Source: a virus (taxonomy: Duplodnaviria > Heunggongvirae > Uroviricota > Caudoviricetes). From it: a stretch of 64,000 nucleotides of DNA. Within the stretch, counting starts at the first letter, position 1. Each line of letters starts with the position of its first letter. This document shows, in pieces, positions 16,459 through 20,176 of this stretch. The position numbers and the translations under genes were made by a program. The stretch is from the IMG/VR virus record IMGVR_UViG_2609459800_000001; one strand, written 5' to 3'. The notes under the pieces were generated by a model. That model saw only the letters and a list, made by a program, of their open reading frames with translations. It ran no database searches and had not been told where the DNA came from.

Positions 16459-17120
16459 CTACTCTAACGACAGCATACTTACAGCAATTGGTATTTTTTG
16501 CAGGGGAGGCTACTTGTCATCCTGACGCAAACTATTTATTGGAATTTGAGAGGTTAGCGTCACCCGGTATCGTTCTGGAACTGGCCCAACAGGTGCTGAC
16601 ATTGAGACAAAAAGAGCAACTTGGAAGTGATGCTTACAAGTTAGATTTTGAGCAATGGCTTGAACAGCAACGCGGGAAAATAGATGTGGACTGTGGTTGT
16701 GTGTCCACTGAAACATTCATGCACTGGCTGCGGGTAGCTTACGAGGCTGGCAACTATCCGGATATTCCGGATAGTTCGGTGCCAGCGCCAGGAAAGGGAG
16801 TCACCGGTGAACGTATCCGCATTAAGCCGCATGTTTATCGCGAACTGGTTAACCGCCTCCACGATACAGCGATCAAGTGTGCTGGCACCCAGCAATTACG
16901 AGAAAGAATTAGCCGTGTTTTGGGCGACGTTATTACGCCAGATCATCATAAACAAGCCGAGAAAAGTGACCTGGAAAGGTGTCACCTTGAGGCGGCATTA
17001 AACATTAAGCCGGGGCATACGCTTGGCATTATCGATGCTCTGTTGGTTCATAAGATGGCCAGGGCTTTATTGCCGCTGGTGGCTGATAAGCATGAGGCGG
17101 GCCATGCCAACGAAAGCTGA
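16440..17120 (+). CDS. Hypothetical protein
   Basis: 226-aa ORF in a coupled gene string. The start could be 16455. Confidence 0.55.
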   Translation: MAQKEMTTLTTAYLQQLVFFAGEATCHPDANYLLEFERLASPGIVLELAQQVLTLRQKEQLGSDAYKLDFEQWLEQQRGKIDVDCGCVSTETFMHWLRVAYEAGNYPDIPDSSVPAPGKGVTGERIRIKPHVYRELVNRLHDTAIKCAGTQQLRERISRVLGDVITPDHHKQAEKSDLERCHLEAALNIKPGHTLGIIDALLVHKMARALLPLVADKHEAGHANES

Positions 17121-17385
17121 GTTACAGGCGCGCATAGAGATTCTTGAAAAAGAGAATGCGAGTCTAAAAGGAATGCTGGCGCGGGCGGAAAGGGAATTAT
17201 CAGGCAAATTATTGCCAGAAGAACTGCCACCAGCAGATATACCAGATCGAGTGTCCCGGTGGATGAAGTCTTTTGGTTTGCCGTGGGAGGCTTTTTGGTG
17301 CTACGAGCATCGCAGATGGTGTGATGAACTTGATAGCAGTTTTCCCTACTTTGCGGAAGGGAATACTTGCCCTGAGTTGTATTAG
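17104..17385 (+). CDS. Small coiled-coil protein
   Basis: 93 aa from ATG 17104, within track ORF 17023..17385. Its stop lies inside the left inverted repeat of the AT-rich cassette. Confidence 0.5.
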   Translation: MPTKAELQARIEILEKENASLKGMLARAERELSGKLLPEELPPADIPDRVSRWMKSFGLPWEAFWCYEHRRWCDELDSSFPYFAEGNTCPELY

Positions 17386-17437
17386 CTCAGATTTAACCTG
17401 ACACAGCTACGGCACAGTTCTAAACCTAATCTGACAG
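17379..17437. repeat. Left 59-bp imperfect inverted repeat bounding the AT-rich cassette
   Basis: GTATTAGCTCAGATTTAACCTGACA-N24-AATCTGACAG pairs with the reverse complement of 19522..19582. The spacing is identical, the outer arm matches 22/25 and the inner arm 10/10. Confidence 0.75.
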
Positions 17438-17990
17438 GCCGCTTTGTGCCAAAAGCGGGCATTGGGCGTTGTGGTAAATGCCTGATAATTTCTTCTTTTA
17501 CTAGCACAAGCCGCTGGATAATTGCCATGTTTCCAGCTTAAGTAAATCAAGAACAACTCGCGTACTGGCTGTATAAAGTTTGCCGGACGCAAATTTATTG
17601 ATTTCAGAAAAACCTGTTGAAATAGAGGTATATCAGCGTTAGTTTGATGTGAGTAAAGATCAGGAAAGAAGGTAGAAAAATGTTCCACTTGCGGGCAAAA
17701 AATCCTTCTATTAAATTGTTAAGGCTTTATGAAGATCGTACATTACGAATCGAATTCACCATGGGTAGGGAACATGAAATGTCCAAACCCTAAGTGCAGG
17801 AGGAATGACTCCTGCTTGATTCGGGATAGGTTGTACTCGCATGAAGTATGTATTGGCTCTAAACCCAAATACTGGTGGCGTTTGGTCACAAATACCTTAA
17901 CAAGTTTAGGTATGGGACGCTCCTAACGTCGCGCCCCTGCTAAAAGCGTTAGCTGTTCTCTAGCCTTCAACCAGATAAGGAAATAATCGT

Positions 17991-19421
17991 ATGAGTTCAG
18001 AATTGATTGCAAAACCTGGAACAGGGGTACTTTCCACAGATACAACAAAATTTGAAGGATATTTATCCTATCTTGGTTTGCCGACCGAAAATATAATTGC
18101 CTCTCTCCCTGAGCGCCAAATTATTGAAAAAAACCTCCCCACATTCATAGATTCTTTACCTGTTGAGGTAAAAAGAGATGCTCGATATTTATCAAAGTTC
18201 GTTGCTGGTGCGGCTATAGGACTATTTGATGCATCGTTAAATTATGTTTGGAATGAAGTTGTACTGAATTTAAGGGAAAAAGTAGTAGTTTATGGCCTCG
18301 ATATGTTCTTTGATGCTGCAGTTGGAGGAGGACGTAGAGAGCTTTATTCTACCGAAGAAGATCTTTCTGGTTTAAAAGACAACACCCTTATTAATACTTG
18401 CCGAAAACTTGAATTAATATCTGACGTTGTTTACACCAAGCTCAATCATATATTGACTATGAGGAATGACATTGGTGCTTCGCACCCAAATTCATACTCC
18501 ATAAATGCTTTTGAACTTCTTGGCTGGCTCCAAACATGCGTTCAAGATATTTTGAACGACAAACCGTCCGCGTCTGCCATACAAATAAAATCATTCCTTG
18601 AGAATCTAAAAAGATCCACTGATGTTCTTGATGAAGCCACAATTCATAGCATGGAAAGACCTTTGAATGATCTGTCGCTTCAGAATACAGACAATCTACT
18701 CAATAGTATTTTCGGCATATATACAGCTGACTCAACAGGAAATGTTGTCAGAAAAAATATCGCTCTTTTTGCTCCGCATATCTGGAATAAAAGCAGTGAT
18801 AACGTAAAATACAAGCTCGGTGTGACGCTAGACGGATACAAGAACAATCTTCACAACGAGAAACATGCTTTAGGTATTGAGTTTTTTACGTTTTGTGATG
18901 GTAATCGTTATCAATCATTAGACTCTAGAATTATATCACTGGACGGCCATGCCGACGATCTCTTAGAGGCTAGGTATGCTTGGGATAACTTTTATAATGA
19001 ACCCCCTCATATGCGGAAGATTCTTTCGTATTTAAAGACTGAAAATGACATACCTTTAGAGAGGGTTCATAAGCTTATAAAAACAGTTTTGATTTGCCGT
19101 GTTGGTAAAGGAATACCATATAATACTGGTGTTTCTCCGGCGGGACGACCTTTGTATGATCAGTTTTTTGGCATGCTTGGCGATCAAAACATTATCAATA
19201 CAGTTATAGCAATGCACTCTAATGAAGTGCGAGTGAATTTAGACAACAAATACTGCCAGCAACATATGGTAAGCGTTTTGACTTTGTTAAGAGCCAATGC
19301 TCGTAGCGAAAGAATTCAAGAAATTATAGATTTTTTGATCGCCAACCAAACGATTCTCCATAAAGTACACAACGATAAGAGATATAGAGATCTAACTAAA
19401 AATCACATCAGTTTTGGCTAA
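17991..19421 (+). CDS. Candidate HEPN-like abortive-infection/defence protein (476 aa)
   Basis: It is the only long ORF in an AT-rich island, with RBS AAGGA. It carries an R-x6-H motif (LTMRNDIGASHP, R158/H165) in a predicted helical region. No other recognisable domain. Confidence 0.45.
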   Translation: MSSELIAKPGTGVLSTDTTKFEGYLSYLGLPTENIIASLPERQIIEKNLPTFIDSLPVEVKRDARYLSKFVAGAAIGLFDASLNYVWNEVVLNLREKVVVYGLDMFFDAAVGGGRRELYSTEEDLSGLKDNTLINTCRKLELISDVVYTKLNHILTMRNDIGASHPNSYSINAFELLGWLQTCVQDILNDKPSASAIQIKSFLENLKRSTDVLDEATIHSMERPLNDLSLQNTDNLLNSIFGIYTADSTGNVVRKNIALFAPHIWNKSSDNVKYKLGVTLDGYKNNLHNEKHALGIEFFTFCDGNRYQSLDSRIISLDGHADDLLEARYAWDNFYNEPPHMRKILSYLKTENDIPLERVHKLIKTVLICRVGKGIPYNTGVSPAGRPLYDQFFGMLGDQNIINTVIAMHSNEVRVNLDNKYCQQHMVSVLTLLRANARSERIQEIIDFLIANQTILHKVHNDKRYRDLTKNHISFG

Positions 19422-19521
19422 CAAAGCGCTGCACACGGACTAAATTAAGCTTCGCTCACTGGGGCGGGCGACAGCCCGTCCCTTAACCAAACGTTAATGT
19501 CCGCTTCTCGCTCAAAGCAGA

Positions 19522-19582
19522 CTGTCAGATTTGATTGTGTGCTGCCAGTGAAAACTGTCAGATCAAGTCTGAGCTAATACAC
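19522..19582. repeat. Right inverted repeat bounding the AT-rich cassette
   Basis: Reverse complement of the 17379..17437 architecture. It ends about 20 nt before the next gene's start. Confidence 0.75.
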
Positions 19583-19603
19583 CTGAGTGTAGGAGGTAGC
19601 GCG

Positions 19604-19864
19604 ATGTTTCGTCCTCGTCCAATACCGCCGAAACTAACTAATGGCTATCAGCCGAATACTCCAGAAATACAAGGGAGCGAGGGGCTTAAACCACCACCAG
19701 CACCACGTATTCCGCCTGTAGCAAGGAACGTATCATTACGACGAGAGTTAATATTAGCCTTGTCGCCCATTCTGGCTGCCCGCCAGGATTGGGTAAGTAA
19801 TGATGAACTGGCAGAAAAAATCACATCGCTGGTGGATAAAATTATGGATAAAGCTGATATCTGA
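19604..19864 (+). CDS. Small proline-rich hypothetical protein
   Basis: 86 aa from the ATG after GTAGGAGG, within track ORF 19535..19864. Confidence 0.5.
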   Translation: MFRPRPIPPKLTNGYQPNTPEIQGSEGLKPPPAPRIPPVARNVSLRRELILALSPILAARQDWVSNDELAEKITSLVDKIMDKADI

Positions 19865-19875
19865 TCACCATGCTA

Positions 19876-19905
19876 AAATCCCCTCAATTCACAGAGGGGA
19901 TTTTT
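19876..19905 (+). terminator. Rho-independent terminator
   Basis: AAATCCCCTC-loop-GAGGGGATTT followed by a T-run. Confidence 0.8.
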
Positions 19906-19909
19906 GTAT

Positions 19910-20176
19910 ATGTTGCATAGAGTTTTATGGAAATGCGGTATTGTCGGCGCGATGCTGGCTATATCTGGGTGTGCGATGGTGCAATACAATGACGGCGAAA
20001 AGGTAAGCATCCAGTCAGATGGCTGGTATGGACTGGATAGTCTGCAAAAAACCGCAGATAAAGCCTGTCAGCAATATGGGAAGTCTAAAGCTGTATATCA
20101 GCATAGCGCGAACGCTAACCCTCATCTTGCGCCCGGTTCGGGTGTTCAGAATACCATCTGGAAATGTGAGCCTTAA
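19910..20176 (+). CDS. Lipoprotein
   Basis: Signal peptide with a lipobox (MLAISGC). Confidence 0.65.

Follow-up and report, generated by a model that had tools for sequence, protein, structure and literature searches.

How did a single AT-rich gene, framed by a pair of inverted repeats, come to lie in the backbone of a P1-like phage-plasmid? The question is raised by a 64,000-nt stretch of tailed-phage DNA (IMG/VR record IMGVR_UViG_2609459800_000001), which is referred to here, in its whole length, as the window. Both sides of the AT-rich segment match P1, P7, D6, SJ46 and RCS47, with pmgT-pmgU-pmgV in the left flanking block and hot, humD and phd/doc in the right one. Between these blocks lies an element of 2,204 bp (17378-19581) with the termini TGTA...TACA, and the GC content, about 0.50 in the flanks, drops to 0.37-0.40 between its arms. 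It is very probable that this is a non-autonomous IS481-type transposable element, that is, a mobile insertion cassette (MIC) or an element derived from an insertion sequence (IS) that carries a passenger gene. At the sequence level, everything that marks a non-autonomous derivative of the IS481 family is present: ends that match those of the IS, a target-site duplication of the right length (7 bp), an empty site, the absence of a transposase, and a true, autonomous IS481 partner that occurs in Escherichia coli. In addition, there are many sister elements with 7-bp duplications of their own.

Insertion into the 3′ end of pmgV

The arms of the element are about 93 nt long (17378-17470 and 19489-19581) and bracket the AT-rich module. 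A repeat finder reports them as two inverted pairs that are in register with each other, one of 32 nt with 84% identity (17372-17403 / 19556-19587) and one of 41 nt with 80% identity (17423-17463 / 19496-19536). In the outer arm, GTATTAGCTCAGATTTAACCTGACA (17379-17403) and the reverse complement of 19556-19580 are identical at 22 of 25 positions. The inner box, AATCTGACAG, follows after a spacer of 24 nt in both arms and is the same at all ten positions (17428-17437 on the plus strand, 19531-19522 on the minus strand). The similarity then runs on through a palindrome, as far as 17460/17463 on the left and 19499/19496 on the right. Neither arm motif is found elsewhere in the window. From 100 dinucleotide-preserving shuffles of the window, 0.00 occurrences of the outer-arm pattern and 0.01 of the inner box plus palindrome are expected, against exactly two observed for each.

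The first-pass annotation of this DNA, which was made from the letters alone, had already described these repeats. Their presence, register, matches and spacing are confirmed by the sequence and the shuffles, and so is the overlap of the left repeat with the stop codon of the upstream gene, as the TAG of the pmgV homologue (17383-17385) lies inside the left arm. Other details need correction. The arms had been given as 59 bp and thus stopped short of the palindrome, the coordinates of the right arm were off by 1-2 nt, and the right end had been placed some 20 nt before the ribosome-binding site of the next gene, whereas it is actually about 10 nt before that GGAGG.

The inverted similarity appears to extend beyond the arms (CTGAG / CTCAG). 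This apparent extension is in fact a direct repeat of 7 bp, CCTGAGT, of which a perfect copy (7/7) is present on both sides of the element. For the uninterrupted locus, both flanks were joined via one CCTGAGT into a query of 600 nt. This query is matched at a coverage of at least 80% by 14 P1-like plasmids, 11 of them end to end, and among the matches listed each is one unbroken piece with 94-98% identity. Read base by base, the empty site of plasmid CP027223 is ...TGCCCTGAGTGTAGGAGGTAGCGCGATG, or in a longer form ...ACCTGCCCTGAGTGTAGGAGGTAGCGCGATG..., with one CCTGAGT and without an arm. No arm-like sequence is present at the pmgV locus of P1 and RCS47 either.

The element is located between pmgV and an open reading frame (ORF) of 86 aa upstream of hot, and its insertion point is 8 nt upstream of the original stop codon of pmgV. 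The C-terminus of the pmgV product now reads ...CPE-LY*, as opposed to the original ...CPE-CRR*; the last three codons have been replaced, and the last two codons and the TAG are derived from the element. The junction between pmgV and the arm is not found in 50,697 phage records, nor among 72,556 plasmids or in 5,426 complete E. coli genomes. Two other assemblies, from a larger, protein-indexed collection, do have the identical insertion, flanked by the same duplication. Judging from these comparisons, this particular insertion is recent and rare.

The interval between the element and hot (19604-20176) contains the 86-aa ORF and another of about 88-90 aa. In the same interval, P1 has upfM/upfN/upfO and RCS47 has a different gene on the minus strand. 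Thus, the gene content between pmgV and hot differs among P1-like genomes, and the interval is itself a variable region.

The IS481-family partner and the sister elements

A weak match to the right arm elsewhere in RCS47 leads to an IS of 1,201 bp. Its product is a transposase of 346 aa (ORF p0027, labelled 'ISSod13 family transposase', and 'IS481 family transposase' in RefSeq) that reaches 289 bits with the NCBIfam IS481 model NF033577 (cut-off 224) and has the Pfam domains rve, rve_3 and HTH. Read inward, the ends of this IS are TGTATTAGTCGCGACTTGATCTGACA on the left and TGTATTAGCTCAGACCTGATCTGACA on the right. The right end of the window element matches the right end of the IS at 25 of 26 positions, and the identity extends to ...CTGACAGTT. 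The left end matches the right inverted repeat of the IS (IRR) at 22 of 26 positions and has the CTGACAC signature that is specific to the left one (IRL). Two sister elements (L106 and L078) bear the IRL-specific TAGTCGCGAC, and the distinction between the two types of arm, A (left in the window) and B (right), tracks that between IRL and IRR. The right end of the IS also has a ATCTGTCAGAT box 24 nt inside its terminus.

Duplications of 7 bp also surround the two IS copies that were examined: TTTAATC for the one in RCS47 and ATTAAGG for one in an E. coli chromosome. Full-length copies occur in 121 plasmids (from Serratia, Erwinia, Salmonella, Klebsiella, Pantoea and others). Among the 5,426 complete E. 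coli genomes, 77 have the full-length IS, and a single genome may contain as many as nine places that match it in full or in part. Partial matches with 80-90% identity, mostly chromosomal, are seen in 3,427 of these 5,426 genomes, as against the 77 with an intact copy, and their spread suggests a widespread fixed relic.

In the window, tblastn with the IS transposase finds no homologue, nor does it in 124 phage and plasmid loci or in 120 loci of bacterial genomes, and the only long ORF of the element has no transposase domain. With its IS-type ends, its duplication and the lack of an enzyme of its own, the element thus counts as a non-autonomous relative of the IS. Its ends are the terminal inverted repeats of an IS481-family IS of the 1,201-bp type, which is found in RCS47 and in plasmids and chromosomes of Enterobacterales. 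In the proposed mechanism, a DDE-type transposition event brought the element into the 3′ end of pmgV in a P1-like phage-plasmid, duplicating CCTGAGT, and the transposase must have been supplied in trans by a full-length copy of the IS elsewhere in a host cell. It is inferred that the mobilising enzyme was this IS481-family transposase and, by analogy with the related IS3 family, that the pathway was of the copy-out/paste-in kind.

The window element is not alone. In blastn searches, the inner part of the right arm matches P2-like phages whose records annotate a 'repeat_region' as a left or right inverted repeat. These records are AJ512676-AJ512685, Z-region sequences of P2-like phages with repeats of about 90-110 nt, and the arms of P2-EC30 align with those of the window over their whole length. 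The records annotate inverted repeats only, with neither a duplication nor a relation to an IS given. They belong to the 2004 article by Nilsson, Karlsson and Haggard-Ljungquist in Mol Biol Evol, on the Z/fun region of P2-like coliphages. In the literature searched, of which that article itself was not a part, no link of these repeats to an IS and no duplication are reported.

With an arm profile seeded partly from the P2-EC30 arms, 205 arms in 125 loci are found in phage contigs, nearly all as convergent pairs that are 0.9-6 kb apart. Eighty such pairs enclose 57 unrelated clusters of cargo with a GC content of 0.32-0.47; the cargo in P2-EC30, for instance, is the known defence gene PD-T7-3. 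Most pairs are at the G/FI site of P2, and there are about 38 other clusters of flanks, in which the neighbours include integrases, tail-fibre genes, a portal gene and a helicase. Stx1a/Stx2c phages have arm pairs as well, and in mEp460 a pair separates Q from the lysis genes. In bacterial genomes, taken one per species, arms are present in 91 of 120 loci, mostly in Enterobacterales. The arms are, in effect, shared by backbones that are unrelated, namely those of P2-like, lambdoid and Stx phages and of bacterial chromosomes.

Perfect 7-bp duplications are present at 15 distinct insertion sites of arm pairs, the window included, and at several more the match is 6/7. Together with those of the two IS copies, this gives 17 duplications, with T at position 3 in 16 of them and A at position 5 in all 17. 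As read from this alignment, the target is symmetric, nnTnAnn, with weak specificity. At the P2 site, the flanking heptamers match at only 4-5 of 7 positions (AATAAGT / AATCAGG) and the terminal repeats are degenerate. These features suggest that the Z/fun slot of P2 goes back to a single old insertion of such an element, which became fixed and has since decayed at its ends. In the P2-like loci (n = 68), the A arm always points toward gene G and the B arm always toward FI. The cargo is seen in both orientations relative to the arms (32 vs 21, by a crude typing of A and B); thus, the arms are not a directional promoter/terminator pair.

Some members of the family have features of their own. In a P2-like viral contig (L106, 6893-9448), an arm-bounded element with the perfect duplication CCTAAAT adjoins the portal gene. 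The portal-gene side, near cos, is the other classical variable region of P2-like phages, and the family is therefore not restricted to the Z/fun slot in P2-like genomes. In mEp460_ev081 (L127, 3465-4080), a miniature member of about 616 bp, with an ORF of 131 aa only, is flanked by the Q antiterminator and the lysis genes, at the position where the stx genes sit in Stx phages. In the Stx2c phage PV98-693 (L126, 4003-5971), an arm-bounded element with a 517-aa ORF adjoins the phage integrase and has the flanking heptamers AGTAATA / AGTAACA (6/7); a match of this type recurs in 24 records of Stx1a/Stx2c phages. Finally, the Z/fun slot has three arms in the P2-like viral contig L026 (2325-4888; also in L054 and L121). 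There, a solo and well-preserved IS-type end without a palindrome, TGTATTAGCTCAGACCTTATCTGACAGG, is found 88 nt inside the normal A arm, followed by a 200-aa recombinase gene and the normal B arm. This solo end may belong to a nested or truncated second element.

Several observations weigh against the assignment of the window element to the non-autonomous IS481-type elements. The 64 kb of the window contain no transposase, and mobilisation in trans is deduced rather than seen. No second copy of the exact element was found at another site, so its own mobility amounts to one event only. The left terminal repeat departs from the ends of the IS at 4 of 26 positions (IRR) or 8 of 26 (IRL). Moreover, the inner 65 nt of the arms (spacer, box and palindrome) have no counterpart in the left end of the IS, and in its right end only the box has one; as this part is largely unmatched, the arms are not simply IS ends. 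Lastly, the full-length IS is rare in E. coli, being present in 1.4% of the complete genomes.

Nevertheless, of the interpretations offered in the first-pass annotation, the termini of a non-autonomous mobile cassette are the one that has been borne out, by the duplication, the empty site, the IS481-family ends, the absence of a transposase and the other cargos between the same repeats. An empty site in related plasmids and different cargos had both been named there as things to look for. The former was found as a single CCTGAGT without an arm, and the latter as the 57 cargo clusters. The duplication, the link to the IS and the homology to the P2 Z/fun repeats had gone unnoticed in that annotation.

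Table 1. Coordinates of the element, its parts and its neighbours in the window
Feature	Position	Strand	Description	Basis
pmgV homologue	17023..17385	+	target gene	match to P1 pmgV; empty-site alignment
Left copy of target-site duplication	17371..17377	.	CCTGAGT	
Left terminal inverted repeat	17378..17403	+	TGTATTAGCTCAGATTTAACCTGACA; IRL-like, A arm	alignment to ends of IS481-family IS
Whole left arm, type A	17378..17463	+	terminal inverted repeat, 24-nt spacer, inner box, palindromic site	nhmmer E=2e-25; alignment of 124 arms
Left inner box	17428..17437	+	AATCTGACAG; copy of the inner part of the terminal inverted repeat	among the most conserved stretches of the arm family
A-type 24-bp palindromic site	17437..17460	+	GGCCGCTTT-GTGCCA-AAAGCGGGC	left edge of transferable cargo block
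Leader of cargo	17461..17990	+	530 nt	99% conserved together with the gene in hundreds of plasmids
Cargo gene	17991..19421	+	476 aa; all-alpha; R-x6-H motif RNDIGASH at residues 158-165	conserved uncharacterised family
Whole right arm, type B	19496..19581	-		nhmmer E=1e-25; arm alignment
B-type 24-bp palindromic site	19499..19522	-	minus strand GTCTGCTTT-GAGCGA-GAAGCGGAC	right edge of transferable cargo block
Right inner box	19522..19531	-	AATCTGACAG	
Right terminal inverted repeat	19556..19581	-	minus strand TGTATTAGCTCAGACTTGATCTGACA	25/26 vs IRR of the IS
Right copy of target-site duplication	19582..19588	.	CCTGAGT	
Downstream backbone ORF	19604..19864	+	86 aa; ribosome-binding site kept intact just outside the element	

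Inner palindromes and rival readings

The best-conserved stretch in the alignment of 124 arms is not the terminus, it is AATCTGACAG followed by the palindrome. As a duplex, the palindrome has 9+6+9 bp, with GTCCGCTYT-GTGCCA-RAAGCGGAC in A arms and GTCTGCTTT-GAGCGA-GAAGCGGAC in B arms. Among 60 distinct arm pairs, 52 are strictly A+B and the rest are degenerate A+B, with none that is cleanly A+A or B+B.

The 476-aa cargo gene of the window (cargo476) was compared across six unrelated contexts. Besides the P1-like window, these are an IncF plasmid, a lambdoid prophage, an E. coli chromosome and two places defined by their neighbours, a large helicase in one and an int-alpA pair in the other. Every time, the block of identity starts at the central hexamer of the A site and stops just past that of the B site. 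Each context also has the outer half-sites, but these differ from one context to another. Two other cassettes, orf269 and int200, share this behavior, as the identity blocks of all three start and stop within the 24-bp sites in unrelated contexts and their orientation relative to the A and B sites is constant. The first of these, orf269, makes up all of the cargo of the P2-type elements of three viral contigs, with 99.5% identity and with breakpoints within the A and B sites. The other, int200, encodes a tyrosine recombinase of 200 aa (WP_001752951.1) that consists of the catalytic domain only and falls far below the cut-offs of the XerC/XerD/XerA and integron-integrase families. In the other arm-bounded elements where it recurs, its start codon is always preceded, at a distance of 39 nt, by a B-type centre. 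In 11 arm pairs with the same cargo and at least six differing alignment columns, mismatches are spread across the outer arm and cease at the palindrome. The breakpoints of the PD-T7-3 cassette are uninformative, as all 13 genomes have the P2-like context.

Cassettes of this kind are also found side by side. The IncF plasmid L004 (NZ_CP025845.1, 16822-26899) has an array over positions 324-7800, with the order A(324)-betT-DUF2254-A(3997)-cargo476-B(6082)-int200-A(6743)-orf269-B(7774). The array is also present in two E. coli chromosomes (L130 and L131), and its units recur elsewhere as separate cassettes. In an island with int and alpA (L260, 4532-4580), the terminal B site of cargo476 is followed by CTGACAG and then by another A-type site, GTCCGTTTCGTGCCAGAC, which looks like the start of a next cassette.

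From these block boundaries, it is conceivable, although with a chance somewhat below even, that the inner palindromes are sites at which cargo blocks are exchanged between elements and other loci. Of much the same standing is the idea that the arms are a two-part device, with IS481-type transposition ends on the outside and heterospecific 24-bp sites for the swapping of cargo on the inside. In this scheme, site-specific recombination would join A sites to A sites and B sites to B sites and thereby swap cargo blocks among elements, plasmids and chromosomes, as a natural counterpart of recombinase-mediated cassette exchange. The 200-aa tyrosine recombinase, which is itself a cassette between B and A sites, is a candidate for the enzyme. 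Exchange of this kind at a core-type site would produce just such breakpoints. Homologous recombination within the 93-nt arms fits less well, because three contexts share only the palindrome with the arms. The idea in the first-pass annotation of recombinase sites for exchange is, in this form, plausible at the inner palindromes, but not at the CTGACAG boxes.

There are also points against exchange at the palindromes. Only three cassettes can be compared across contexts, and no recombinase is tied to the 24-bp sites. The strict A+B pairing could have been inherited from one ancestor. In addition, the stem of the palindrome shows no compensatory changes: in the 124 arms, 87% of the alignment cells are paired and covariation is at the level of shuffles, so that an RNA or DNA structure is neither supported nor excluded.

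A rival to transposition is integration of the whole module by a site-specific recombinase, of the tyrosine or serine type, with the repeats as its sites, in the style of an integron cassette or of a small integrative element. The edges of cassettes in other contexts do fall within the 24-bp palindromes, and the 200-aa tyrosine recombinase travels with the same sites. Furthermore, the literature on the homologous P2 repeats invokes site-specific recombination (PMC8987985, citing Nilsson 2004). However, the junctions with the P1-like backbone are not at the palindromes but at the IS481-type termini, TGTA.../...TACA, and the element is flanked by a 7-bp duplication of ordinary backbone sequence. 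The empty site contains neither a palindrome nor an att-like sequence. Moreover, the 15 sites have unrelated 7-bp duplications with a weak nnTnAnn specificity that is typical of transposition. Thus, as an account of how the module entered the backbone, site-specific integration is improbable.

Still less probable is that the repeats are the sites of a DNA invertase and that the module is an invertible switch, like cin/cix of P1 or fimS. In its favor, the repeats are inverted and the boxes near-palindromic, and P1-like phages carry an invertase system elsewhere. Nevertheless, the arm pattern occurs nowhere else in the window, and no recombinase gene is present inside the element or adjoining it, where the neighbours are pmgV and the 86-aa ORF. 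The central hexamers differ (GTGCCA vs GAGCGA), so recombination of A with B is not expected; tyrosine recombinases usually need identical spacers. The inversion of the module that the first-pass annotation had entertained finds no support in the P2-like loci, as the same type of arm faces the same flank (A toward G, B toward FI) in all 68 of them. Orientation does vary between different cargos, but it is constant for the three that were compared across contexts.

An equally faint prospect is that the arms are regulatory elements of the backbone, such as terminators or operators of the flanking genes, that were duplicated in inverted orientation by chance. Each arm has a palindrome that is capable of forming a stem, with the pairing given above, and the left arm overlaps a stop codon. 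By contrast, P1-like plasmids with the empty site have neither arm, which refutes this reading as an origin, and the same arms are present in unrelated P2-like, lambdoid, Stx and chromosomal backbones. A terminator scan calls neither palindrome, the stem shows no covariation, and in P2 the annotated terminator of the upstream operon is located elsewhere. Promoter-like sites are at the level of shuffles, and an Rfam scan of 17000-20000 (E<=1) gives no match. The first-pass annotation had named, as something that would refute its reading, arms that are conserved backbone sequence in genomes without the insert; this does not hold, given the empty-site plasmids without both arms and the armless locus of P1 and RCS47. 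Nothing was found in favor of its other suggestion, duplicated regulatory sites.

That the similarity of the ends is a product of chance or of low-complexity AT-rich sequence has nothing but the AT-richness of the module on its side and can be dismissed, given the shuffles (0 or 0.01 expected, two observed), the nhmmer E-values of about 1e-25 for both arms and the hundreds of homologous arms. Other candidates that were dropped are ERIC/IRU repeats (a 12-mer resemblance in the P2 arm only), the hairpin ends of IS200/IS605 (as such ends are not inverted), XerCD/dif, Tn3-type inverted repeats and a composite transposon.

The cargo, related systems and the meaning of the element

The product of the cargo gene belongs to a family with 1,197 matches, all of them unnamed, which is tightly conserved, constant in length and distributed in Gammaproteobacteria and beyond. 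The protein has no match in Pfam, PADLOC and NCBIfam, and BLASTP shows no similarity to the cargo of P2-EC30. R158-N159...H165 are invariant in 37 homologues, and the R-x6-H pattern is like that of HEPN nucleases. The predicted structure is all-helical, with a predicted local distance difference test score (pLDDT) of 75, and is poorly defined around this motif; its structural neighbours are generic helical repeats only. By analogy with PD-T7-3 in a sister cassette, and from its AT-rich context in a slot for accessory (moron) genes, the cargo is possibly an anti-phage gene or one for competition between elements.

The leader contains small ORFs on both strands, one of 93 aa (17407-17688, minus strand) and one of 65 aa (17729-17926, plus strand), the latter of which is called as a gene in another assembly. 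The leader could encode a regulator or an antitoxin-like partner. It has no tandem repeats, and thus no ToxI-like array. Cargo and leader together are found with 99-100% identity in hundreds of plasmids and chromosomes without IS-type ends.

Among known systems, the repeats of the P2 Z/fun region are the most direct relatives. Their homology to the window arms extends over about 93 nt and takes in both the AATCTGACAG box and the palindrome. They have the same A and B types and likewise bracket AT-rich and highly variable cargos of one or a few genes. They differ in that the P2 pair is at a fixed place between G and FI, whereas the window element is between pmgV and the 86-aa ORF of a P1-like backbone. 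Similarly, the terminal 26 nt are degenerate in P2 and the heptamers match at 4-5 of 7 positions, but the window repeats are near the IS ends and the duplication is perfect. The 1,201-bp IS, in turn, shares the terminal repeats (TGTATTAG...CTGACA), the 7-bp duplications that fit nnTnAnn, and a subterminal ATCTGWCAG box 24 nt inside its right end. It has a transposase and no 24-bp palindromic sites, while in the window element the reverse is true and there is a passenger gene.

MICs, such as MIC231 of Bacillus cereus, are mobilised in trans by an IS, in that case IS231A. Like the window element, they have IS-type terminal inverted repeats, no transposase, one or more passenger genes, a target-site duplication and hosts that also contain an autonomous IS with the corresponding ends. 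However, the parent family here is IS481 and not IS4/IS231, and the window arms have an extra conserved inner segment of 65 nt that is absent from the parent IS. The diversity of cargo in the arm family is also very large (57 clusters in 80 pairs), and the boundaries of the cargo are precise. Miniature inverted-repeat transposable elements (MITEs) are likewise non-autonomous, with ends derived from an IS and a target duplication, and the 616-bp relative in mEp460 is near their size; unlike the window element, with its 476-aa ORF and its own leader of 530 nt, MITEs are geneless. Integron cassettes, with their attC sites, resemble the family as promoter-independent single-gene modules with very diverse cargo, in tandem arrays (as in plasmid L004) and with imperfectly palindromic sites exactly at the cassette edges. 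By contrast, the window element has no IntI, attI or GTTRRRY core, and there are two sites per cassette. These are 24-bp palindromes of duplex type and of two kinds, and the entire unit is transposable as well.

Transposases are rare in phage genomes, and transposition is usually discounted as a route of gene flow into phages (PMC10879196). A cassette without a transposase of its own that is moved in trans would not show up in surveys based on transposases, as none stays behind with it. The element of the window is a known kind of element in a new backbone, to which are added its parent IS family, with the 7-bp duplication, and the evidence on exchange sites. It shows that one gene can enter P1-like, P2-like and lambdoid phages and chromosomes without homology. 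Moreover, the repeats of the Z/fun defence hotspot, which have been known since 2004 and for which the sources read describe no mechanism, are now tied to a defined IS family, and this link makes the origin of the hotspot testable.

If the inner palindromes are recombination sites, the family would be an integron-like system of cassette exchange for anti-phage genes. Exchange, if true, would explain why the ends of 57 unrelated cargos coincide to the base, why the Z/fun slot of P2 is hypervariable despite its decayed transposon ends, and why cassettes with alternating A and B sites form arrays on plasmids. For the family as a whole, the arms provide a search handle for candidate defence genes that are so far uncharacterised, the 476-aa cargo included.

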